Assembly: GCA_963702095.1 (NCBI GenBank)
Contig: OY969706.1
Coordinates: 1,120,001-1,184,000, forward strand
DNA from: Candidatus Bathyarchaeota archaeon
Lineage (GTDB): Archaea; Thermoproteota; Bathyarchaeia; Bathyarchaeales; Bathycorpusculaceae
DNA length: 64,000 nt
Reading direction: 5' to 3'
Shown: piece by piece, positions 11,929 through 24,529 of the stretch
How the letters are laid out: each line of letters starts with the position of its first letter
Numbering within the stretch: position 1 is the stretch's first letter
Made by a program: the position numbers and the translations under genes
The notes under the pieces: model-generated
What the model was told of the DNA's origin: nothing
The model's input: the letters and a program-made list of their open reading frames with translations, nothing else
Database searches by the model: none

Positions 11929-12864
11929 AGAATTTCGCCTACAACGTTGATGGGTTTAGGAATCAACGACGTTAAGTCTTCAAGCCGCTCCCGATCGATT
12001 GTGGCTAAAACCACTGTAGCTGGACCCGCAGATTTGTTGAGGTCCAACCCCGCGGGTTCCACAAGCTTTAGTTGCCTGCCGACGCCGTAAGCCATCATTT
12101 TGGCTTCGCTGGCAATCCCAAAATCCCCCACTGAAACGATGTCGTGGACGTATTTTCGCTGGGAAAGCTGCGTTACGTTTTTGAGGTCTGCTATTTCGCC
12201 TCTTGCTTCTGCCGCGATGACTTCTTCGCCGACTTTGGGTCTGCCAATTGCCACTATCAAGTCGCCAGGCAACGTTTTTCCAATTCTAAGTTCGCCTTCG
12301 TTGCGCCAACCCCACGACCGTTAAGCCTGCGCCTGTCTGGGTGGTTTGGAAGTTGTCTTCGGTTTTTTCCATTAACACTTGGTTTGGGTCTAAGCCTATG
12401 CTTCGGGCTTCACGTTTTATGCCTTCCAAGATTTCGTTGCCAGTCGGATTCTTCTCAACACCCAACGTTACTGACAGTAGAAGCGGAAACGCGCCTGTCG
12501 CAGTCACATCCATCAACGCGATCCTTGCCAGAAATTTCCCCAAAACTCTGCCATCCACTTTCACCCTGTCATCTATTTTGGGTCCCACGGCTCCTGTGGA
12601 TGTGGAGCCAGCGATGATTGCGTGCCCAGTGGGCATTCTAAGGATGGATATGTCGCCTCTTCTGGTGTAGGCGATTTGGGCAGGTTTAACTTGGAAGACT
12701 ATGGGGCGAAGCATGGTGCTGACGTTTTCGGTGAGGTGGAGGTAGATTGTGAGGGCTTGGCGCATGACTTCGGAGCGGGTTAACTCGTGTTTTTTGGCTA
12801 GTTTGTCTACGTCGGAGATTATTTTGTCGGGTAAACGGACGTTTATGATTTTCAACTGCATCAC
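11925..12864 (-). CDS. RHH DNA-binding domain fused to AIR-synthase-related (alpha-ribazole kinase-like) domain; frameshift near 12303
   Basis: N-terminal INVRLPD...TRSEVMRQAL; GAVGPK..D.V, ARIALMD, TEDNFQTTQTG; continues GELRIGKTLPGDLIVAIG after one extra base. Confidence 0.7.
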
Positions 12865-12953: not shown

Positions 12954-14579
12954 TTAGCGGAAGCAGAAGAACCACCCGCTAAGGCGGCCCCAGAAAAAGA
13001 ACTGCCAGGGCGACCAATAGTGTGCTGGGCGGTATGTCCCTGTTTGGCCGTTTGTTGGGAACGTGGGTCTTGTTGGCTGTTGAGTTACCGGCGGCGCTGT
13101 TGGTTTAGCGGTAGGGTCAGGTGTGGGGTCTTGGGTTGGAGCAGGGGTTGGTGAGGTTGTTGGTGATGAAGGTGATGTTTCTGTTGGGTTTGGGGTCGGT
13201 GTTGCAGTTGGTGCTGGTGTTGGCGTCGCAGCGGGGGTTGATGTCGCCTGTGGAGTTGGAGTGGCTGTTGGTTCTTGAGTTGGTGTCGTTGCGGGGCCAT
13301 TGTAGGCGTTGATGAAGGCTTGTCCCATAGTGTTGGGTGAGTAGCCGCTGCTTAGAATGGTTTCGCCTGAGTAGACTGGTCCTAATCCCGCGTCGCTTAA
13401 CCAGTAGTATGCTCCTAAGCCTATGCCAACATCACGTTGTGCCACAACGAGGTTTTGCCACCAAGTGTAGTCGTTTTGTTTGTTGCTGACGGCGCTTAAG
13501 CATGAGCCCTCTTCATTAACCACTAATGGAGCAGTTACGCCCATGGTTGCTACGCCTGCTTGTAGCTGTGCCTTCAAACCCGCGTAGTCGGTGTTCCAAT
13601 AAGAGCTTAAGTCGGTTGGCGCGTGGTAGTAGAGGTGTGTGGTGTAGACTAGGTTGGTTGCGCTTGGTATGGCTGTTGCGATTTGTTTGCACCAGCTGAG
13701 GTCGTTGCCATAGCCGTTGGGGAACCAGCCCATGTGCCACTGCATCATGACTAGGTTGGTTGAACCTGTTCCACGAATTGCACTGTACATAGTCTGCAAG
13801 TATTGGAGGTAACCTGAGGTTATGGGTGCGTTGTCCGCGCCGGGTTGCGGTTCATTCCATGCCTCGAAGATCGCGTTTGGACAGTTCATCAATGTCTTTG
13901 CCATGTCGCTCCAGAACCAGCTCCAGAAGCCCAGTTCATTGCTGCCGTAGCCTGCATCTGAGAGAAATCTTTGTCCTGCACTGTCCCAGCTGCACATTGG
14001 CAATCCTTGACCTCCTGCAAAGCTTGAGGTTGCATAGGGGTCTTTGCCAAAGGAGCCTGAGTATGGCGTCAGCATGTAGGGAACTATGTCGACGTAGATT
14101 CCGTATTTGGCTGCTTCATTGCACAGTGTTTGCAGGTACGCTTTGGTGCTAATTGGAGTTGAAGAGGCATAGTTACTGTCTTCCTGTGCGGGTGCAATGT
14201 TGTCGCGGTAGTACCAGCTTGGATAGATGAAGACCCGTATCATGTTTATGTGCCATTGATTTTGCATGGCAGAGAAGGTCTGATCCATCGCTGTAGTTGG
14301 GTTGTAGTTCCATTGGGCGCCGAAGTTGTCGGTTGCCCCGCTTCCCCAGAGGATCAAGTCAGGTGCAAACCCCGCGACACCTACACCACGGAGGTAAACA
14401 ACGTTGTCGTCTGCATCCAAAATGTTTGAGCCAGAGGTATGCAGAACAAGCGTTGTAGCCGCCTGCGCCGGTTGCACCGCCAGCACAGAAACCATGCCAA
14501 CGATGAACAATGCGCATAAACCGATTGCAAACGGTTTAGATAGTTTCTTCAGCCCGCGAAATTGATTGGACCCCGCCAT
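12954..14579 (-). CDS. Exported glycoside hydrolase family 5 with Pro/Thr linker
   Basis: LHTSGSNILDADDNVVYLRGV, INMIRV, FEAWNEP acid/base, H.YY, VVNEEG nucleophile; long P/T repeat; aromatic tail. Confidence 0.85.
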   Translation of the reverse strand: MAGSNQFRGLKKLSKPFAIGLCALFIVGMVSVLAVQPAQAATTLVLHTSGSNILDADDNVVYLRGVGVAGFAPDLILWGSGATDNFGAQWNYNPTTAMDQTFSAMQNQWHINMIRVFIYPSWYYRDNIAPAQEDSNYASSTPISTKAYLQTLCNEAAKYGIYVDIVPYMLTPYSGSFGKDPYATSSFAGGQGLPMCSWDSAGQRFLSDAGYGSNELGFWSWFWSDMAKTLMNCPNAIFEAWNEPQPGADNAPITSGYLQYLQTMYSAIRGTGSTNLVMMQWHMGWFPNGYGNDLSWCKQIATAIPSATNLVYTTHLYYHAPTDLSSYWNTDYAGLKAQLQAGVATMGVTAPLVVNEEGSCLSAVSNKQNDYTWWQNLVVAQRDVGIGLGAYYWLSDAGLGPVYSGETILSSGYSPNTMGQAFINAYNGPATTPTQEPTATPTPQATSTPAATPTPAPTATPTPNPTETSPSSPTTSPTPAPTQDPTPDPTAKPTAPPVTQQPTRPTFPTNGQTGTYRPAHYWSPWQFFFWGRLSGWFFCFR

Positions 14580-14862
14580 AGGGTTTCCTAATGTTTTTGT
14601 CTTCACTTTTTTCTCTCTTCCTGAATTTGTGATTTCCCTTATCGTTTGGATCAATTTTAATGCTTTTTGAAAAGAGCGTTACGCTATCTTGTTAAATCTG
14701 GCGCGGGCGTTGCGAAGCTAACTTTACAAGCTTAGTAAAGGGTCAAATACTCAGACAAGTTACACTTGGAATGTTAGATCTTGACCATTGCTTGGTCCGC
14801 TCCACCCGAAAAGCACAAGTGTTATATGCATCAATCAATAAAAAAATTCAGGATGGTCGTAA

Positions 14863-15810
14863 ATGAAAAACAAGGTTTTAGCGTTAAGTATCATTTTATT
14901 ATTAACAACCATATCTTTAACTTCAATTACGTTTGCCCAAGCAGCGGGAGAAAGCCAATGGATCGGCGACTACGAGATACATGATGCATCAACTAACGCC
15001 CTTCTTGTCCAGCATGACGCCGCCACAAACACAACCACAACTATCTCCCCCGTTCTTCCGGGCGCTGACATAACAGTTGATTTCACAGTTAACATTCTTG
15101 CAGGCGGCGAAGGAAACCTTAAGCTATCCACTTCTCTGTCCAAGACATCGGGTCAAAGCACCTATTGGACACTTGAAAGCGACGATTACACCATGGGCAG
15201 CCAATACAACCCCGCCCAGCAATCAACACCATTTAACTGGGTTGAGGGCTCTTTTGAAATGTCTCTTCGCGGAACAGTTTCCAGCAGTGCAAGCGCCTCT
15301 CGACCAGTCACCGTGGTCACACTGGCTGGTCCATCTGGAAGTGTACTTGGACAGTTAATAGTAACTTCTACCAGCGCTAAAATGAATACTTACCTAACCC
15401 TCTACAGCCAGAAAAATGCAAACCTAAACCAACTTGTATCCGGCGGAGTTGACGCAGGATTTATTGAATTATACACTAACACTCTTAACGCATCCAAAGT
15501 AGTAGCTAACGGCGGAGACGTTGACAGCGCGATTGCCATCTTAAACGGCTTAGACGTTGCTAACCCACCTGCCGGTTCAACCATGCAAATGCTGTTTCTG
15601 CCGCTTGTAGGAGTCACAGTTGCCATAGCGGTAATCTTCTTAGTGCTATTCCTAAGAATTCGCGGCAGGATCGGTTACTTCCAACTCGTCGTTGAAGACC
15701 AAATCAAAGACCTTGAAGGTTTAACGCTAAGAGCCAGAAAAATTGACCGTGCAATGTCAGCAAACTTGGACTCCATCAAGGACAGACTCAAAAACTTAGT
15801 TGGGATGTGA
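14863..15810 (+). CDS. Exported single-pass membrane protein with cytoplasmic coiled-coil tail
   Basis: Signal peptide, beta-rich ectodomain, helical stalk, TM (LFLPLVGVTVAIAVIFLVLFL), ~50 aa heptad-like tail. Confidence 0.85.
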   Translation: MKNKVLALSIILLLTTISLTSITFAQAAGESQWIGDYEIHDASTNALLVQHDAATNTTTTISPVLPGADITVDFTVNILAGGEGNLKLSTSLSKTSGQSTYWTLESDDYTMGSQYNPAQQSTPFNWVEGSFEMSLRGTVSSSASASRPVTVVTLAGPSGSVLGQLIVTSTSAKMNTYLTLYSQKNANLNQLVSGGVDAGFIELYTNTLNASKVVANGGDVDSAIAILNGLDVANPPAGSTMQMLFLPLVGVTVAIAVIFLVLFLRIRGRIGYFQLVVEDQIKDLEGLTLRARKIDRAMSANLDSIKDRLKNLVGM

Positions 15811-15813
15811 TAG

Positions 15814-18522
15814 TCTACGAGAATATACCAGAACAGCGTACAACTCATAGGCTTGGGATCAGCAGGCACCAACATAGTCGAATCTTTCCTGTTACACAGG
15901 AAAACCCGTGAACTAATAGAGAACGACTTAACCCGTCTTTCTCTTTTAGCTCTAGACATCGCTGACCCAGAAATACGTAGCCTCCAAGAAACCCACGAAC
16001 AAATTTCAAAATCCCTCATAAAAGCCGGCATCCCCCGGGAACGCTGGCGCCTCATCGCGGAATCCGTGAAATTCCCAACCGCCGAAGCCATGTTCGATTT
16101 CATCAACCAAAAATACGGTGAATACGTAGTAGGCGAAGGCTCTAAACTTGAAAACTACATTCCATGGCTGCAATCCACCATGGCGGTTCCACCTATGGCA
16201 GGAGGCGCAGGACGCAGACGTGCACTGGCAAAAGCAATCTACGCACTCAACTACTACCAGTTAGGCATCATAAGAAACTGCATCAACTCCTTCAAAGAAC
16301 AGGCGCTTTCATCCATTGTTACTCCTACTGTTGTTCTGGTTTATGGTATGGGTGGCGGCACCGGAAGCGGCATCTTCTTCGACTTTGCCCGTCACCTACG
16401 GAAAGTTATGGGTTCAGGAGTACCCCTGATAGCATTCGTGATTACGCCGTGCGGCGGAGATGACCCACCAGCCAAAGGCTGCTCTGCATTTACCGCCATG
16501 AATGAACTCTCGCTTCTGCTAAACAAAGACTACAATGAACATGTTATCAAAGAATACGGCGAAATATACCGCAACCCACTAAACGCCTTGGTCTATCTGC
16601 CTTTACTTCCCGCGTTCTCCAAAGTCGGTAACATCGTGTCCGCCCGCAAAGAAATGGATGACATGGTCGTTGACCTCCTCTATGTACTAATGGACTTCGA
16701 CTTAGCAGACCTCTTAGGCGGCATAGGCACAGAAGTCGGGTTAACAACCAACTCCGCGCACACTTTGGGCATGATTAAAGTTATGTATCCAGTGGAGGAT
16801 TACCTCACAGCCTACAAGCTAAGCTTTGAAAGCATGACGCTGCTTCAGGAATCCCGCAAAGAAAAACTTGACATCCTAAGCGAAATCAAATCAGTCATTC
16901 AAGTTGACAGTGACCTAGCAAAGGAACTCTTCAAAAACTATCTAATCAAATCCGGCACTTACAACGAGGATCAGTTTGAGGATAAGCTGAAAACCATAAT
17001 TACCAGCAACCCCCGCCTCGAAGACGACGTTGAATTACACGTTAAAGGTGTTGAAATCCAGGTGAAAAACTGGCTTGACGATATCATGAAGTACCTCTCA
17101 ACTATCAAATTGATGGGCAAGAATGGGCCAATTGAAGAATCAATCATTGACCTCACATTAATGAAGGAAGGTTCAAGAAAACTCGACAACCTTGAAATGC
17201 TCTTAACTACCCTCGCCAAGACTCACCTTGAATTCCGCGAGCGCAAAGCCGACATCGTTGAACGCTTAAACCAACTTATCCCCAGCTCACAAGTCTTCAC
17301 CTTACGCCAGAAAAAAGTTCTAGAAGACCTGGTTAACATCGCTGAGCTAGCCGAGCAATCCCTTGACATACTCAACTTCTATGATGAAACCCGCTATATC
17401 ACCGACGCCTTGGTACGCTACTACGAGGTTCTTCCTGACAGTCAATTAGAACTCGAAGACCTTCATAACATCCAAGCTGAACTGGGCACATTGTACTTGT
17501 TGATTCAGCTTATGCTTCGAACACCCGCTGACGAATCGAAAATGATCGATGAACACCTCACCTATGTCAACGAAATCTTAGGTAAGCGCATGCAGAAACG
17601 AGGTGACTTCGACAATGAAGTTATGCGTGTAGCTGAAATTAAGAAACGCAAAGAATTCGACAAAACCAAGATGGAGCGCCAAATCCGCAAGTTCCTCAGC
17701 TCCAAACGCTACGCCCGAGAACAACTATTAGGCTTAGACCGTGACCTAAGACGCATCGCCGAAGAAGAAGCTATCGCATTGGAGAACCTCGACAAGGTTG
17801 ACGAAACCATAAAACTCTACGAGAAACTCGCCAACCGCTTCCAGTTAATTTCCGAGTACCGCAAACGGCTCAACAAAATTGTAGATGCCCACAACGAATA
17901 TAAAGCTAAAATCGCAGAGATAGTTGCGCCCAAACGTTACTTTGAGAAATCCGCTGACTTGACCGAGAAGGAACAATTAAAAATCATCTTCAAAATCCTC
18001 ACCGAGCAAGAAGAAAACCTAACCAGAGAAGTCATTTACAAAGACATCCTCGACATGGAACACTTCAAAGACTACATAAAAAGCGTGGTCCGCAGCTTCA
18101 AAACCCCCAGTGTCATGGGCTACAAAAACACATACAAAACCGATTACATCTGGGTAACTGTTACGACTCCGCCGAAAATGTGGACGGAAGACATGTCACA
18201 AGAAGTCTACACTGCACTCGCCGGCTATGTAACCAGTGAAGTCAGCCGAACCATCACTGTCCGCGTTGTGGAATCACGCGATGCATGGACAACCAGAGTG
18301 CTGGTGGTTGGCGGACGCGGCCACCCCGAAGACATGGAAGCCTTTGACGAAATGCAGAACCTCTACAGCAAATCCAACGACTTCGAACGCTACCTCTCCC
18401 GCTCCTTCCTACTTGAACACGGCGTACACGCAACCAATATCATCAAGAAGATCAACCAAGAAAACGGTTACACACCGACAGCTGCCAACGGCAACGGCGG
18501 CAACAACAAACCTAAGCAGTAG
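15814..18522 (+). CDS. Tubulin/FtsZ-superfamily GTPase with large helical insertion
   Basis: In-frame upstream of the ORF-track start: VQLIGLGSAGTNI (T1); LALD (T2); GGAGRRR (T3); GMGGGTGSG (T4); DFDLADL (T7-like); C-terminal strands TRVLVVGG. Start codon unresolved. Confidence 0.88.
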   Translation, partial: STRIYQNSVQLIGLGSAGTNIVESFLLHRKTRELIENDLTRLSLLALDIADPEIRSLQETHEQISKSLIKAGIPRERWRLIAESVKFPTAEAMFDFINQKYGEYVVGEGSKLENYIPWLQSTMAVPPMAGGAGRRRALAKAIYALNYYQLGIIRNCINSFKEQALSSIVTPTVVLVYGMGGGTGSGIFFDFARHLRKVMGSGVPLIAFVITPCGGDDPPAKGCSAFTAMNELSLLLNKDYNEHVIKEYGEIYRNPLNALVYLPLLPAFSKVGNIVSARKEMDDMVVDLLYVLMDFDLADLLGGIGTEVGLTTNSAHTLGMIKVMYPVEDYLTAYKLSFESMTLLQESRKEKLDILSEIKSVIQVDSDLAKELFKNYLIKSGTYNEDQFEDKLKTIITSNPRLEDDVELHVKGVEIQVKNWLDDIMKYLSTIKLMGKNGPIEESIIDLTLMKEGSRKLDNLEMLLTTLAKTHLEFRERKADIVERLNQLIPSSQVFTLRQKKVLEDLVNIAELAEQSLDILNFYDETRYITDALVRYYEVLPDSQLELEDLHNIQAELGTLYLLIQLMLRTPADESKMIDEHLTYVNEILGKRMQKRGDFDNEVMRVAEIKKRKEFDKTKMERQIRKFLSSKRYAREQLLGLDRDLRRIAEEEAIALENLDKVDETIKLYEKLANRFQLISEYRKRLNKIVDAHNEYKAKIAEIVAPKRYFEKSADLTEKEQLKIIFKILTEQEENLTREVIYKDILDMEHFKDYIKSVVRSFKTPSVMGYKNTYKTDYIWVTVTTPPKMWTEDMSQEVYTALAGYVTSEVSRTITVRVVESRDAWTTRVLVVGGRGHPEDMEAFDEMQNLYSKSNDFERYLSRSFLLEHGVHATNIIKKINQENGYTPTAANGNGGNNKPKQ

Positions 18523-18704: not shown

Positions 18705-18728
18705 GCAAACGGCAGCCTATCTGCCCTT

Positions 18729-20234
18729 TTATTCAGCTTTTTCTTCACTTTGGGCTTTTCTGGTTCGACGGGTCCTTTTGGGTTTCTGTGGCTCAGCTTC
18801 TTCAACTGGTTGCGCAGGATCCGCTGGAGGTGCTTCCTTGGGTTGTTTGGTTCTCCGTGACCTCTTCTTTTTTTCCGGTGCCGGGGGCTCGGGTTGCTCG
18901 GGTGCAACTTCGGTTTGAGGTAATGCTAAATCCATTTCTGCGGGTTCTTGAGCGGCAGTGGCTGGTGTTTCGGTCACGATTTCTGGTGATGCCTCTGTAG
19001 GCGATATTGGCTCCTCGACTGGCACTTCAATGTTCTGCAATTCAACGGTTTCGGCTGGCTGCTCAACCGCTTGAGTCTCCTCTATTGCAGGTGATTCAGG
19101 AGGCTTGACTTCTTCTTCAACTTTGAAGGGCAACTGCCAATCCTGTGTCATAAAGCCCCTCTCAACCGCTTGCCTCTTCAACCCTTCTACTTTCTTCTCC
19201 AGCCCAGCAAACATCTGTTCTGTGTCAAAGCCGCCGATGAACAGGACTGCGTCGATGCGGTCGGTTAAGTCTGTGGTGTAGATGGGTTCGGTTATGTGGA
19301 TGGATTGGAGGCTGGTTTTCTCTTTGAACCAGTTTGTGATTTCCAACTCGATTTTTGCTCTGGGAATCTTTTCCCGCAGCCCCTCAGGCATACGTAATAG
19401 CACGTAGAGCAATGAGGAACCTGAAACATCAAAATCCAAAAGAGGCTTAAGCAACGCGGTGTCGAGCATGTTCTCAAGTGAGCCGTAAACCCGGTAACTC
19501 GCCGCGGTAACCGCTAAGCAACTGAAAAATTTAACATTAAACGTCCTGGATAACTCGGCGATTTCCTGCACCAGCAACTCTTTAGACAAAAACAGGTTCA
19601 GCAAGTAATTGACCACATTGTTGCCCCTGATTTGTTGGCCTGCGCGGTCTACGCCATCAAAGCCTTCAAGTTGGTCTCTGCCCAGTAGCACAACCGTGGA
19701 GCCCTCTGTTGAGAGGCACATCTGGATTGTGGCGTATGCGTTGAAGTGGGCGTCGTTTGGCTGGATTTTTGAGGGTAAAATCGCCAGTGAAAGCGAGTCG
19801 ATGCTGTGCCGTCGGAACTTATCGATGAGGCTTGGCAGGGCGGCGCTGCCCACTCCATCCCACACTGAAGTGAAAATGATGGCGCTGTGGAGTTCTTGGG
19901 TGTGTTTCTTTTTGAGGCTATCCATAATTGCGGTGCTTCTAATCATCGTTGGCAAGACATCGTACCAGAAGTGGGTGTCGATGTCTTTGTCTTCGAAGCC
20001 CCAAACGAAGTGGGGGTTGTAGCCTCTGGGTATCCACTGGTAGATGTCATCGCTTGATTTTTCGATGAAAATCGGCAGTATGCCCACTTTGTTTACGCCT
20101 GGTTCTTTTATGAATGTTTTAATGGGGTATTCGCCTATGCAGACCATCGCTTGCTTAGGCAGCAAGGGTTTTAAGGCTTCTATATGTTTTTCAACGCTTG
20201 CTAGGATGTTAAAACTTGCTTTGCCATCCTTCAT
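18729..20234 (-). CDS. Divergent tubulin/FtsZ/CetZ-fold protein with degenerate GTP motifs and disordered tail
   Basis: SAIIFTSVWDGVGSA (T4-like), LAILPS...FNAYAT, TVVLLGRDQL, ALLKPLLDFDVSGS, RIDAVLFIGG; E/P-rich linker and basic tail. Confidence 0.7.
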   Translation of the reverse strand: MKDGKASFNILASVEKHIEALKPLLPKQAMVCIGEYPIKTFIKEPGVNKVGILPIFIEKSSDDIYQWIPRGYNPHFVWGFEDKDIDTHFWYDVLPTMIRSTAIMDSLKKKHTQELHSAIIFTSVWDGVGSAALPSLIDKFRRHSIDSLSLAILPSKIQPNDAHFNAYATIQMCLSTEGSTVVLLGRDQLEGFDGVDRAGQQIRGNNVVNYLLNLFLSKELLVQEIAELSRTFNVKFFSCLAVTAASYRVYGSLENMLDTALLKPLLDFDVSGSSLLYVLLRMPEGLREKIPRAKIELEITNWFKEKTSLQSIHITEPIYTTDLTDRIDAVLFIGGFDTEQMFAGLEKKVEGLKRQAVERGFMTQDWQLPFKVEEEVKPPESPAIEETQAVEQPAETVELQNIEVPVEEPISPTEASPEIVTETPATAAQEPAEMDLALPQTEVAPEQPEPPAPEKKKRSRRTKQPKEAPPADPAQPVEEAEPQKPKRTRRTRKAQSEEKAE

Positions 20235-20296
20235 CCGAGGTACCTACGATACCTTTAAGAGGCGTTTAACTACAAATAAGGTTTTAGGTAGATTGC

Positions 20297-22702
20297 TTGA
20301 AGAAGCCCTCCCTACACCTTTCAGGCTTAAGCACTTGGAATAAAGATCGCAAGCAGAAAAAGAAGGAAAAAGAAGAAAGGGAACGCCAACTTGAAACTCC
20401 CATGATAAAAATCTTCACCTTCGCGATCACAGCGGTCACGATGGCGCTTGCCATGTCAATTCTGCCCCTGTTTCCTCAGCCTCTGCCTATTTTCCTCGCT
20501 ATTTTGGTTGCGTTTGCAACCTACATTAAACCCCGCTTAGGCATGCCTGTGGGCGGCTTAATCGTAGGCTTAGGCTTACTGTTTCATTTATCCCAATTGT
20601 ACTTCATATCTTTCCTAGGCGACACCCTCGCCCGGGTGGTGTTTATCGTCGTTTGGATGACGCTGTTTGTAGCTATGCCCCTATTGTTTAACCGTTACAG
20701 AAGCGCCTTAGCCATCGACTTTGGCATTTTAGCGTTTGCAGCGCTTTGTTATCAACCCCTTTTCTTCTTGGCAATACCCTTGATTTTGGCGTCGGCGGTG
20801 TACTTCAAAAAGTATGTTGGGTTAACCGTTGTCTATTATGTTCTGCTGTCTGTACCCCTACAGCTTGTCCAGTACTATCAGGAAACAGTTTTGAAAATTG
20901 TTCAATCTGACTGGTGGACTGTGCCCGGTTCAGCTCCACCGTTATTTGTTTCTCTTAACTCGATTTCCGCCAACCTCACCTCGTCGATGAGTCAGTTCCG
21001 ACTTTATGACACTTCAAAAGTGATTTATGACATCGCTGGCCAAACCACTTGGGTTCCCGATTGGGGAGGACGCACCATCAAAGATGCCCTCTCACAATAC
21101 CTTGACTCTCTACCCGGCATACTCATGTTCGTCGTCATCGTCGTTGGCTTAGCGCTTCTGATGATTTTCTTCACTCAGACAATGGTTAAATCCGGTTTAA
21201 TCGGGGCTGGCGACAGGTTTTTCCCCTGCTTCACCGCCACCATCGCAGCCGCACTCTTCTTTGTGTTGCTAAACGCTTTCCAGACCCCCTTGGCTTTCAC
21301 CGCAGACGTAAGCGCCACAACCATGGTGCTGGGCATTTTCAGTACCTTACTGCTTACCCTGCCCGTAATGTTTATGGATTACGCGCCTAAACAACGCGCA
21401 ACCAACCAAGAAATCATAGAAAAAGCCCAAGAACTCCTCGACAAAGTCACCGCTTTCGATGGGCAACTTGCCAACGTGAAAGAGAATATTCCAGTGAATG
21501 TGACTTCGCCGCAGGGAAAAACGCTTGTTCTCCTAGACGCCATCCAAGAAATAAAGAAGCGAGCGGCGGCTCACGAGTTTGTCCAGAATGAATTAGACGA
21601 AAAAATCGTCGAGTTAGACACGCTGGGCAAGGACTACGAAGCCATAGAAGCTGAACTCAACTCTATCCTCTACGAATACCAGGTTTTCTCTAACTGTGAA
21701 TTCGCCAACTGGGTTGGCAAACTCAAAATTGCAGGCTTAAACATCCAAGCCACTGTCCCGGTAGACTACCAAAAAGAAATGACTATAGACGAGCGCATTG
21801 AAGCCATAAAACAAGTCGTGGAAGCCGGGCGCTCAGTGGTCCGCGAAGTTTCAGCGATTGCAGAACCCATCTACGACATCATCCGCCCCCTCTACGACCC
21901 CTCGCTGCCCGAAAAGAGTAAAGCAGTGGAATTCGCCGCTGAAAAACTCGCAAAAAACGAAGCCCCATGGATAGCCATCGAAGCCTTCTACAATGCCCTC
22001 AACAATTGGGCACGTCAATACGGCAAAGACATCCAAGACACCATGGTTTACCTGCAGCGGTCCCTAAAACCCATCGCCTACCTAAACAGCAAAGCAGACC
22101 TTTTACCCGGGGCCTTCGGCGATAACACCGCCAAAGTATTGGATTACGCAAAGAAAGCCGACGGACTAAAGCTCCTTGCAGAGAAACGCTCAGAAAAAGA
22201 GAAGCTTGAAATCCTCGACGTAGTCAACCTAAAAGAAGACGTGTTAGGATTCATTGAAATGTCAAATGATGTACTCTCTATGCTCTACGCCAACTTGGTT
22301 AACGACGAAGACACAATCGAGCACTTGTTGCCCACTAAAGATTTCATGTGGGAGAAAAACGCCTCCTTACGCGACCGACTAGGACAAGCCAAAGACATGC
22401 TCTCCAACCCCCAGAGCTACCGCATCAACCAAATCATGGAGAGCCTGCCCAAATATCTCGGGTACGTAGACGAAGCCGTGTTGACACTGGCAGCTTATGA
22501 CGAACGCAAAGAATTCCTGCTCAACTACCCATTGGCAGAAGCAGCCATAACTGAACAGCTGAAAACCAAAGAGAAGCTGTTGCCTTCAGATTTGCCTTTC
22601 CGACCCCAATTCGCCGCAGAATACCTAAGACTCTACTATTCACAGAGATACGGCGAATACGCCTTTGACAAAGAAAACTTTGTGCTAACTAGAAGAGAAT
22701 AA
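20297..22702 (+). CDS. Polytopic membrane protein with long cytoplasmic helical domain
   Basis: About 9-10 hydrophobic segments in the first ~360 aa, then ~440 aa of helical/coiled-coil-like sequence. Confidence 0.85.
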   Translation: MKKPSLHLSGLSTWNKDRKQKKKEKEERERQLETPMIKIFTFAITAVTMALAMSILPLFPQPLPIFLAILVAFATYIKPRLGMPVGGLIVGLGLLFHLSQLYFISFLGDTLARVVFIVVWMTLFVAMPLLFNRYRSALAIDFGILAFAALCYQPLFFLAIPLILASAVYFKKYVGLTVVYYVLLSVPLQLVQYYQETVLKIVQSDWWTVPGSAPPLFVSLNSISANLTSSMSQFRLYDTSKVIYDIAGQTTWVPDWGGRTIKDALSQYLDSLPGILMFVVIVVGLALLMIFFTQTMVKSGLIGAGDRFFPCFTATIAAALFFVLLNAFQTPLAFTADVSATTMVLGIFSTLLLTLPVMFMDYAPKQRATNQEIIEKAQELLDKVTAFDGQLANVKENIPVNVTSPQGKTLVLLDAIQEIKKRAAAHEFVQNELDEKIVELDTLGKDYEAIEAELNSILYEYQVFSNCEFANWVGKLKIAGLNIQATVPVDYQKEMTIDERIEAIKQVVEAGRSVVREVSAIAEPIYDIIRPLYDPSLPEKSKAVEFAAEKLAKNEAPWIAIEAFYNALNNWARQYGKDIQDTMVYLQRSLKPIAYLNSKADLLPGAFGDNTAKVLDYAKKADGLKLLAEKRSEKEKLEILDVVNLKEDVLGFIEMSNDVLSMLYANLVNDEDTIEHLLPTKDFMWEKNASLRDRLGQAKDMLSNPQSYRINQIMESLPKYLGYVDEAVLTLAAYDERKEFLLNYPLAEAAITEQLKTKEKLLPSDLPFRPQFAAEYLRLYYSQRYGEYAFDKENFVLTRRE

Positions 22703-23356: not shown

Positions 23357-23540
23357 ACGCTGATTTTCTTCTGGATCTCCTCTTGCTGCTCGGGACTAAA
23401 AACTTCTTCTTTGCAACTTGGGCACCTAAGCGCCTTCACACCTTGCATCAACACGCCGTCGATTTCGCAGTCAAACTGCACCTCAACATATTCCACACAG
23501 CAGACCGGGCAAAGAAGCGCACCCGCCTTGGAGTCTGGTT
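23353..23540 (-). CDS. YgiT-type zinc finger protein (start uncertain)
   Basis: CPVC...GVKALRCPSCKEEVFSPEQ. Confidence 0.6.
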
Positions 23541-24013
23541 TACTCGGTGAATTTTCGGCGAACTTCTTGCGCCCACGCCTCAACTTTGGCTGGGTCCGTG
23601 TTGTCCAGCATGGTTTTTCCGAAGTACCGTATGCGTCCCCCAAACGCTTCTGAACCCACGAAGTTAACCTGAGGGAACTTTGCGAGGGTTTTGGTGACGA
23701 ATCGGGTTTTGGCGTTTTCGTAGCTGCCCGGTGTGCCGCCCCAAGACGAAGAGGTGAAGAATGCCACGCGTTTTCCGCCAAGATCGCTTTTGAAGAGTTT
23801 TAATGCGCCGCCGTAGATTCTGCCGCCCCTAACTCCCGCGCCCACAAGCACATTGCGGTACTGCCCCAGATCGCATACATCCTGTTTTTTGAGGTTAACC
23901 AAATCAACCTCCAACCCATACTTTGACTGCAGTGTTTTCGCCAAGATTTCCGCGGCTTCTTTGGAGGCGCCCTGCTTGGATTCATAAGCAACTAACGTTT
24001 TATTCTCAGCCAT
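23540..24013 (-). CDS. Flavodoxin-domain protein (HemG-like)
   Basis: TLVAYESKQGASKEAAE, VLVGAGV, EAFGGR. Confidence 0.85.
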   Translation of the reverse strand: MAENKTLVAYESKQGASKEAAEILAKTLQSKYGLEVDLVNLKKQDVCDLGQYRNVLVGAGVRGGRIYGGALKLFKSDLGGKRVAFFTSSSWGGTPGSYENAKTRFVTKTLAKFPQVNFVGSEAFGGRIRYFGKTMLDNTDPAKVEAWAQEVRRKFTE

Positions 24014-24055
24014 TCCCAGTTCCCTTCCCCTATCATTAGCGCTCAAGGTTATAAA

Positions 24056-24529
24056 TTACTGGGTAAATTTCTTTCCAAGTTCTTCAGCCCACGCTTCCAC
24101 ACGGCTTAAATCCGTGGTGTCAGTGACTGTTTTGCCCAGCATCTTGAAGCGTCCGCCGAATGCTTCTGTGGCTACGGGCTGTATTTTCGGGTAGTTGGCA
24201 AGTGTGTTTTCGACGAATTTGGCTTTGGCGGATGCATATTTTTCTGGGGTGCCTGCTTCGCCTGAGGATACAAAAAACGCGACCCGTTTGCCCGACAAGT
24301 CCAGTTCGAGGCATTTGAGGGCTTTACTGTAGACTTTGCCTGCTCTCACGCCGCCGCCCACAACAACGTTGCGGTAACGGTTGCAATCAGAGATTCTCTG
24401 CTTGCCCAAATCGACGATGTCAACCTCCAACTGATACTTCGAACGCAGAACATCCGCAATTTTCCTTGCCGCTTCTTCGGTGGCGCCGCTTTTAGATTCG
24501 TAAGCGATAAGGGTTCTGTTCTGGCTCAT
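24056..24529 (-). CDS. Flavodoxin-domain protein, tandem paralog
   Basis: TLIAYESKSGATEEAA; colinear with the neighbouring gene. Confidence 0.85.
   Translation of the reverse strand: MSQNRTLIAYESKSGATEEAARKIADVLRSKYQLEVDIVDLGKQRISDCNRYRNVVVGGGVRAGKVYSKALKCLELDLSGKRVAFFVSSGEAGTPEKYASAKAKFVENTLANYPKIQPVATEAFGGRFKMLGKTVTDTTDLSRVEAWAEELGKKFTQ

Follow-up and report, generated by a model that had tools for sequence, protein, structure and literature searches.

Within the 64,000-nucleotide stretch of a Candidatus Bathyarchaeota archaeon analysed here (assembly GCA_963702095.1, contig OY969706.1; hereafter the window), a minus-strand open reading frame (ORF) at 18729..20234 starts with ATG and encodes 501 amino acids, the stop codon being included in these coordinates. 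Its product, for which we use the label psTub as a tubulin-fold protein, had been described in an earlier reading of the letters alone (the sequence-only reading) as a probable pseudo-GTPase of the tubulin/FtsZ family with replaced glycine loops. The gene stands in a cluster with three plus-strand genes that encode a 315-aa membrane protein, a tubulin-like GTPase of the FtsZl1 type and an 801-aa polytopic membrane protein. Among sediment archaea the Bathyarchaeia are abundant, and we know of no experimental work on their cell biology. The locus points to an unstudied membrane-linked cytoskeleton, one partner of which probably makes no use of GTP.

The psTub protein, its fold and its family

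The main part of psTub is a globular, two-domain, tubulin-like body (residues 1-365, 19140..20234; all psTub features lie on the minus strand), as delimited by an AlphaFold2 (AF2) model, by Foldseek and by VIA, a re-alignment of Foldseek's matches to the second of the two psTub models described below. In this body the T1 loop has its equivalent in GEYPIK (residues 34-39, 20118..20135), which replaces G-x-x-G-x-x and was placed by alignment with the Zn-ribbon relatives introduced below (G[IV]GxxGxxI), and the T4 loop in WDGVGSA (residues 125-131, 19842..19862), which replaces GGGTGSG in alignments with the same relatives and with CetZ (3zid); the segments CIGEYP and SVWDGVGSA correspond to residues 32-37 and 123-131. 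Helix H8 starts with VQEIAELSRTF (residues 222-232, 19539..19571), identified from the model and the alignment and containing the invariant residues E224 and E227. A C-domain stretch, ALLKPLLDFDVSGS (residues 260-273, 19416..19457; checked directly in the sequence), looks, by eye only, like 'ALNGRLLDIEDVTKAKG' of the genome's own FtsZ. The N-terminus is modelled as a helix (residues 10-20), the only cysteines are C32, C173 and C239, and an N-terminal CxxC...CxxC ribbon is absent.

Beyond the body follow an acidic, proline-rich disordered linker (residues 373-454, 18873..19118), recognised by its composition and by a predicted local distance difference test score (pLDDT) below 50 in the first AF2 model, and two basic patches read directly from the sequence, KKKRSRRTK (residues 455-463, 18846..18872) and KPKRTRRTRK (residues 484-493, 18756..18785). 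The loops, the C-domain stretch, the linker and both patches had all been listed in the sequence-only reading, and each was recovered in place. The linker has 82 residues, including 21 Glu and 16 Pro, and a net charge of -21. At least 40 residues follow position 372 in 116 of the 120 best relatives (median 97), and a basic heptad, [KR]x[KR][KR]x[KR][KR], occurs at least once in the tail of 80 of them and twice in 8. Linker sequence and length vary among the relatives, and the consensus KPKRxRRTKK is kept in the psTub alignment (A1). The succession of globular part, disordered linker and brief conserved terminus in psTub resembles the build of FtsZ.

Family profiles left psTub almost without a match. 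The Pfam family Tubulin (PF00091) covered only residues 111-182 with 16.1 bits against a cut-off of 33 (E 0.014), and the same Pfam scan gave no match to FtsZ_C or CetZ_C (PF21011) at E<=1 and none to Tubulin_C or PF13809. No family was assigned from NCBIfam, PADLOC or PHROGs, and since PADLOC and PHROGs also held no family for the three neighbours of psTub in the cluster, these two resources give no link to defence or to phages. A single-sequence phmmer search of psTub against the sequences of the Protein Data Bank (PDB) had its best hit at E 0.09, to an unrelated protein, and an hhalign comparison of A1 with the genome's FtsZ as a single sequence was uninformative (probability 0.3%).

Structure prediction was more telling. 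A first AF2 run with 34 close homologues gave a best pLDDT of 70.4 (the other four models 49-60), and Foldseek matched this model to Methanocaldococcus jannaschii FtsZ at E 2.5e-15 over 353 columns, to CetZ2 at 6e-14 and to TubZ at 1.2e-13. The second model, of residues 1-372 from a 47-row alignment, reached a pLDDT of 88.3 (five models 85-88) and a predicted template modelling score of 0.86; this alignment includes distant and GTP-motif relatives, which may aid fold prediction and are silent on ligand binding. The VIA alignments, which cover model residues 25-368, give Z 29.4 with OdinTubulin (7eve; root-mean-square deviation 3.1 A over 327 residues, model residues 23-367), Z 28.3 with BtubA (2btq_A) and the same Z with a chain of the gamma-tubulin-ring-capped microtubule 8vrj, and Z 27.7 with CetZ (3zid; 304 of 360 residues aligned). 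Tubulins, CetZ and the like make up the best 50 VIA rows, all with Z of at least 27.3, and no FtsZ entry is among them.

psTub thus has a complete two-domain tubulin fold that is nearer to the tubulin/CetZ side than to FtsZ, and the features of FtsZ proper (FtsZ_C, GGGTGTG and an NxDFAD T7) are not present. The membership in the tubulin/FtsZ family that had been proposed from the letters is borne out by the Foldseek match to M. jannaschii FtsZ, by the VIA score with OdinTubulin and by a profile match at E 7e-46 to a family that reaches Pfam Tubulin. The sequence-only reading had named the lack of any Foldseek hit as what would refute this membership, and the Foldseek matches show that this refutation fails. 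CetZ (3zid, 4b45, 4b46) and the tubulins (7eve, 2btq) share the two-domain fold over psTub residues 25-368, but their sequence identity with psTub is 10-13%, their gene context is another and psTub is without GGGTGSG. CetZ and tubulins bind GTP and polymerise.

A word-seeded search, in which 8000 candidates were scored, gave 676 psTub relatives at E<=1e-3, and the 120 of them that were listed are 64-99% identical to psTub across the globular part. An exhaustive search of 1.84 billion cluster representatives with the psTub family profile gave 120 proteins at E<=1e-3, of which 95 reach E<=1e-10 and 47 reach E<=1e-30. The sequence-only reading expected standard annotation to call such a protein hypothetical, and the legible names among the 120 listed matches are indeed 'hypothetical protein' throughout, apart from P0044, a JGI entry named 'cell division GTPase FtsZ'; two metaclust entries have unreadable names. 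Among 62 related loci in species-representative genomes, 56 are titled Bathyarchaeota, Bathyarchaeia or Bathycorpusculum, and the other six 'uncultured archaeon' (3), 'Nitrososphaerota archaeon' (2) and 'miscellaneous Crenarchaeota group-6' (1). The psTub family was seen only in Bathyarchaeia, in 49 of the 301 sampled genomes of the class; by taxonomic family, and with the window's own genome left out, it occurs in 12 of 48 genomes of f1, 2 of 12 of f5 and 34 of 71 of f19.

The ratio of nonsynonymous to synonymous substitution rates (dN/dS) is 0.077 for the globular part (dN 0.037, dS 0.473) in comparison with L021, the closest homologue with unsaturated dS, and 0.07-0.13 for seven further pairs, all of which have dS above 1.5; three pairs were not computable. 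The frame is intact in the window and in the 48 full-length loci which, together with the window, make up the 49 family sequences used below. psTub is a real and strongly constrained gene, and its features go beyond chance, because its relatives are many, its replaced loops are fixed and its dN/dS is low.

Zn-ribbon relatives and the rewritten nucleotide loops

Also within reach of the psTub family profile, at E 1e-26 to 1e-11, are proteins of 420-460 aa with an N-terminal Zn ribbon (C-x-x-H...C-x-x-C), a T1 loop of the form G-x-G-x-x-G and the T4 signature GGGTGSG. In a Pfam scan of 35 proteins, 11 of these Zn-ribbon relatives exceeded the PF00091 cut-off, with 37-53 bits, and the seven divergent members that are full-length, at about 370 aa, all stayed below it. 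A profile of 20 Zn-ribbon relatives (A3; e.g. P0173, P0176 and P0188) matches the psTub ORF at E 7.1e-46, and its best matches in 401 sampled genomes of the phylum are psTub orthologues at 1e-37 to 1e-53. Among solved structures, A3 matches CetZ1 best (9.4e-13), followed by Odinarchaeota FtsZ1, CetZ2 (1.9e-12), CetZ 3zid, AtubB2 and TubZ. Two motifs are common to both groups, namely T5, which reads LPSxxEPxxxHFNAY in the relatives and LPSKIQPxDAHFNAY in psTub, and a C-domain motif, which reads SDRIDAxxLLGG in the relatives and TDRIDAVLFIGG in psTub. A link to thaumarchaeal FtsZ-like proteins was considered and rejected, the three weak A3 matches found elsewhere in the phylum (L110-L112) covering only the N-domain and having no match to the psTub profile.

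The Zn-ribbon relatives align with psTub over the whole globular domain and have the same place in the gene module; unlike psTub, they have a Zn ribbon of their own and no acidic linker or basic tail, and their clusters have all genes on one strand and an extra gene for about 327 aa, whereas the psTub cluster has neither. By sequence and place, psTub is the Bathyarchaeia counterpart of a protein, mostly with a canonical or near-canonical signature, that we call the second tubulin of the module. Within the 20 relatives of A3 the T4 signature is an exact GGGTG[SAC]G in 10, has one or two changes in 7 and is lost in 3, so that it is canonical or near-canonical in 17 of 20, and the T1 pattern G-x-G-x-x-G is present in 18 of 20. 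A quick IQ-TREE tree of 41 rows with three outgroups, which does not settle the order of the three main clades, places the three lost signatures, GETLVSG, SEGIVAG and GENITSG (P0185, P0191 and P0177), in one clade (100 in the Shimodaira-Hasegawa-like approximate likelihood ratio test, SH-aLRT) that nests inside one of two Zn-ribbon clades. The psTub core forms a separate clade of 15 rows (SH-aLRT 99), and the protein P0244, described with the module below, sits unplaced on a long branch. The signature of the second tubulin has, on these alignments, been lost more than once.

The two Zn-ribbon clades, both well supported, also differ at the start of H8 among the rows inspected, in the columns of psTub residues 222-229. 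The start is mostly Asp in one clade (P0176, P0179, P0190, P0204) and Arg in several members of the other (P0173, P0181, P0188, P0207, P0182).

How far the nucleotide loops of psTub depart from those of its relatives can be read from the joint alignment. At T1, the G-x-G-x-x-G of the relatives corresponds to C32-I-G34-E-Y-P37, in which the middle Gly alone is kept, and at T4 their S-x-G-G-G-T-G-S-G corresponds to S123-V-W-D-G-V-G-S-A131. The same T4 register is found in a local HMMER alignment with CetZ 3zid (SGGTGSS), taken from a search of the A1 profile against PDB sequences in which the CetZ and AtubB2 matches were sub-threshold (E 0.08-0.1) and served for local alignment only. G34, E35, Y36, I38, K39, D126, G127, G129 and S130 are invariant in all 49 family sequences, and so are R186, D187, E224, E227, R230 and F232; W125 is kept in 48, A131 in 46 and P37 in 45. 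The replacement of the glycine loops T1 and T4, as it had been read from the sequence, is confirmed by this alignment, the replaced residues being fixed in 45-49 of the 49 sequences. Positions conserved in at least 98% of the sequences are concentrated in the loops T1-T6, defined as the stretches after model strands S1-S6 (15 of 41 positions, against 26 of 319 elsewhere; odds ratio 6.5, Fisher p 4.5e-6, to be read with the reservation that alignment columns are non-independent and the sequences are kin). Since divergent psTub members keep the acidic second position of the signature (WEG, SEG) and an aromatic residue in T1, and since the loop positions are invariant, the former nucleotide face has been rewritten and then frozen, and is not drifting. 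In the model, helices 206-217 and 221-232 (H7 and H8) leave a link of about 3 residues, where the T7 site lies; this link is 2-7 residues shorter than in the Zn-ribbon relatives.

Structures of FtsZ and of tubulin show the phosphates gripped by backbone amides of the T1 and T4 glycines. Trp, Asp, Val, Tyr and Pro sit at these phosphate-holding sites in psTub, which argues against canonical GTP binding, and we infer that canonical binding and hydrolysis of GTP have most likely been lost in psTub.

The gene module and the proposed role of psTub

The 315-aa membrane protein (14863..15810, plus strand) has hydrophobic segments at residues 4-28 and 237-273 and a short helical tail, and its gene lies directly upstream of that of the FtsZl1-type tubulin-like GTPase (15817..18522, plus strand). 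The GTPase has a long helical arm and 901 aa when counted from a probable ACG start, and it matches the Pfam family Tubulin_2 (PF13809) at E 2.1e-10. In 26 GTPase sequences, which include the partners of both kinds of second tubulin, the residues G12, G14 and G17 of T1, G179-G181, G183, S184 and G185 of T4, and F294, D295 and D298 of the T7 motif DFDLAD are invariant. A scheme in which psTub would lend catalytic T7 acids to a partner lacking T7 was ruled out, as the GTPase has an invariant DFDLAD of its own. The psTub gene converges on the GTPase gene and diverges from that of the 801-aa polytopic membrane protein (20297..22702, plus strand), which has hydrophobic segments within residues 35-362 and a soluble C-terminal half of about 440 aa; the 62-bp divergent intergenic region between psTub and the 801-aa gene (20235..20296), read from the sequence, may serve as a promoter. 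The genome also encodes one canonical FtsZ (130 bits), about 280 kb from psTub.

The arrangement is widely kept. The GTPase gene lies beside psTub in 57 of the 62 related loci, four of the five misses being at a contig edge; 60 of the 62 have the 801-aa gene, at a distance of about 61 nt from the start of psTub and with the divergent spacing kept in related loci, and 52 have the 315-aa gene. Among the 301 sampled genomes of the class, 49 have psTub, 55 have the GTPase, and 48 of the 49 psTub genomes have both, the exception being G120, a genome of 75% completeness in which psTub lies at the end of a contig. A GTPase match without one to psTub occurs in seven genomes, two of them fragmentary (G144, G255) and the other five (G011, G035, G112, G135, G222) with divergent GTPases of 32-39% identity.

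Equivalent clusters also occur outside the psTub family. Three divergent clusters (L066, L068, L069) have, on one strand, a 315-like gene, a GTPase gene, an 801-like gene, an ORF of 348-350 aa and an ORF of 251-254 aa. The 348-aa protein of L066 (P0244; L066:4547-5590, minus strand), from a divergent Bathyarchaeia cluster, has a Zn ribbon and no trace of the signature, and is matched by the profile of psTub and its relatives with an hhalign probability of 88% (E 2.9e-6, 238 columns). The Zn-ribbon relatives are encoded at 30 metagenome loci, 12 of which have a full 7-kb upstream flank, and all 12 hold, in this order, a 315-like gene, a gene for a GTPase of about 900 aa (33-36% identical), an 801-like gene, the ORF of about 327 aa and the Zn-ribbon tubulin. 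The extra gene (about 327-354 aa; e.g. L082:6002-6973, L084:5993-6976, L104:5937-6998 and L095:5953-6993) has no Pfam match, its product is not tubulin-like (hhalign probability 0.75%), and no homologue was found in the window or in the Bathyarchaeia loci.

The flanks of the Zn-ribbon loci hold genes for RecA (436 bits, L083), Rho (L104), an OmpR-type response regulator (L084) and a HAMP histidine kinase (L082), and because of this content the contigs with the Zn-ribbon version of the module are bacterial. In a language-model atlas, Chloroflexota is the commonest label of the nearest cluster, which has only 7 labelled members. As the Zn-ribbon version is bacterial and the psTub version archaeal, gene content suggests that the whole module may have been transferred between bacteria and archaea.

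The FtsZl1 family has been predicted to act in membrane remodelling, as an accessory to canonical FtsZ, and its published operons include von Willebrand factor A (vWA) proteins, P-loop GTPases, kinases and OmpA (Makarova and Koonin 2010, PMC2875224). The available portion of that paper mentions no second tubulin-like gene for these operons, and its supplementary tables may list one as 'hypothetical'. psTub lies in the same gene module as an FtsZl1-type protein, but it is without the PF13809 match, the coiled coil and the helical arm, features that its GTPase neighbour has. A full-text literature search found no description of the psTub family or of a second tubulin in FtsZl1 clusters. psTub would add a second component to these uncharacterised 'membrane remodelling' modules. 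Surveys that rely on PF00091 would miss the psTub family because its score of 16 bits is below the cut-off of 33; one such survey is that of the tubulin family of 2023 (PMC9871819), which collected its homologues with PF00091 and in whose available text the word Bathyarchae is absent.

The reading that we favour, with confidence only somewhat better than even, is that psTub is a non-catalytic second tubulin which, as a co-subunit or an adaptor, supplies the membrane-linked assembly of the GTPase next to it with a fixed surface that does not depend on nucleotide. The sequence-only reading had conjectured a catalytically dead cap, nucleator or adaptor with a basic tail that may bind membrane or DNA. 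The main argument for such a structural role is that the GTPase always keeps its GTP machinery, whereas the second tubulin can lose it. psTub is the form that the second tubulin takes in Bathyarchaeia, in a module composed of the 315-aa protein, the FtsZl1-type GTPase, the 801-aa protein and the second tubulin, and it would act as a structural subunit or adaptor of an assembly built by the GTPase, with which it presumably forms a physical partnership. The remodelled and conserved 'nucleotide face' would be the fixed contact surface, independent of nucleotide, and in this lineage the acidic linker and the KPKRTRRTKK tail may act as an electrostatic tether to an anionic surface or a partner. The psTub locus would offer a concrete and testable example of a cytomotive filament system that has recruited a non-catalytic paralogue.

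Several observations weigh against this reading. In one locus (L037, CAVZJV010000014.1), psTub and the 801-aa gene are present with no GTPase or 315-aa match within the 8-kb flank, the only GTPase-less case among the loci with room. The orientation in Bathyarchaeia is convergent, and because psTub thus converges on the GTPase gene the two are not co-transcribed. Both psTub and the GTPase are absent from 8 of the 14 genomes of the window's genus; since these genomes lack both genes and a canonical FtsZ is encoded elsewhere, the module is accessory and not core division machinery. Three of the seven signature positions survive (G127, G129, S130), and no other part of psTub is as conserved as the pocket loops, which would suit a retained or new ligand as well. 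E224 and E227, at the start of H8, can only tentatively be equated with the catalytic T7 acids. The tail is missing in many members, the distant ones, including most of f19, ending near residue 375, and for this reason the basic tail is a lineage-specific addition that cannot be core to the function of the family. A predicted complex of psTub (1-372) with the GTPase (1-345, 750-890) and GTP scored 0.00 and 0.00, without controls, and weighs neither way.

The conservation of the pocket loops counts for a different explanation, which we regard as unlikely, in which psTub is a tubulin regulated by a ligand that its remodelled pocket continues to hold, be it GTP or GDP bound non-canonically, some other nucleotide, or a metal or cation held by E35 and D126; G127, G129, S130, R186-D187 and the T5 stretch PSKIQPxDAHFNAY are kept, and the T5 motif is common with the relatives that have GTP motifs. 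The substitutions themselves speak against it, with Trp and Asp for the first two glycines, Val for Thr and Tyr-Pro for Ala-Gly in T1, bulky or acidic side chains that should clash with phosphates or repel them, and so do the acidic second position kept by divergent members and the low PF00091 score. The locus without a nearby GTPase gene would fit psTub as a self-sufficient scaffold or filament that needs no nucleotide, works with the 801-aa protein and has no direct contact with the GTPase. The 62-bp divergent control region in common with the 801-aa gene, an arrangement found in 60 of 62 loci, agrees with this; however, 48 of 49 psTub genomes hold the GTPase, nearly always adjacent, and the bacterial clusters have all genes on one strand, so that we give such a scaffold a rather small share of the probability.

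To our knowledge, few tubulin-family proteins are thought to work without GTP, examples being the FtsZ-like protein of Nitrosopumilus maritimus and ARC3, and as far as we know ARC3 does not bind GTP. In another reading, psTub would restrain a tubulin-family polymer, that of the neighbour or of canonical FtsZ, or cap its ends, on the model of ARC3, a protein with an FtsZ-like domain that directly inhibits Z-ring assembly (10.1101/2024.01.08.574726) and whose domain scheme is given as FtsZ-like plus MORN (PMC12232670). In the available text ARC3 resembles psTub as a tubulin-family domain that regulates a GTP-using relative and does not polymerise alone; unlike psTub, it is a eukaryotic plant chloroplast protein with a MORN fusion and no sequence link. 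One competent and one dead polymerisation face, as the top face and the short T7 of psTub would imply, should end a filament, and the genome has one canonical FtsZ; yet psTub has no link to that FtsZ, about 280 kb away, it is lacking in 8 of 14 genomes of the genus, and the data do not separate capping from co-polymerisation, and we consider a cap distinctly improbable. Decay into a functionless gene, for which the lost family signature and the 'hypothetical' annotation might be cited, is refuted by conservation (dN/dS 0.077, intact frames, invariant replaced loops and a confident fold), and next to no weight is left to it.

The protein Nmar_1262 of N. maritimus (Ng et al. 2013, PMC3684127) has the signature AGKAGSA and no conserved T7, formed no polymers in yeast and coexists with another division system, according to the available parts of that paper. 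As a protein of an archaeon from the wider group (TACK) to which Bathyarchaeia also belong, with a replaced signature that ends in G-S-A, as that of psTub does, it is alike by description, but nothing in those parts links it to an FtsZl1-type cluster.

We further put forward, as a tentative and on balance doubtful extension, that the cluster encodes a prokaryotic cytoskeleton of two tubulins, anchored at the membrane, which would divide the work between them much as alpha- and beta-tubulin do. The FtsZl1-type protein would be the sole GTP user, and the second tubulin would repeatedly have become an obligate nucleotide-free subunit, in Bathyarchaeia and at least two other lineages, its face (E35, Y36, K39, W125, D126, R186, D187) mimicking a permanently loaded site and locking a hydrolysis-proof contact with the partner; the module would have been transferred between bacteria, possibly Chloroflexota, and Bathyarchaeia.

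Other features around the module

The GTPase gene probably starts at a conserved ACG (15817-15819), and the double stop TGA TAG that closes the 315-aa gene precedes this codon by 3 bases. Upstream of the TTG at 15853 that the ORF finder chose lies the code for a conserved peptide, TRIYQNSVQLIGLGSAGTN, which comprises strand S1 and the T1 loop. Across 53 loci, R/K-I-Y-Q is preceded by ACG 51 times and by ATG twice, with no other Thr codon at this place, even though the Arg codon that follows varies. Between the convergent tubulin-like genes, at 18711-18725 and 4 bases past the psTub stop, lies a 5-bp GC-rich hairpin with T-runs on both strands. A terminator and promoter scan gave, for the region as a whole, no more sites than shuffled sequence.

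A minus-strand gene at 12286-12864 encodes a 192-aa protein with a ribbon-helix-helix domain and an N-domain like that of AIR synthase (PF01402 at E 4.9e-7, PF00586 at E 1.9e-5). It adjoins the module in most related loci; in the window and a few loci, a GH5 (glycoside hydrolase family 5) cellulase-like gene (12954-14654 in the window) is inserted between the two. In haloarchaea, ftsZ2 is reported to be regulated by ribbon-helix-helix proteins (PMC7439475, available portion). On the other side, the minus strand carries two tandem paralogous ORFs of 168 and 157 aa (23540-24046 and 24056-24529), one or both of which occur near the module in 8 of the 62 loci.

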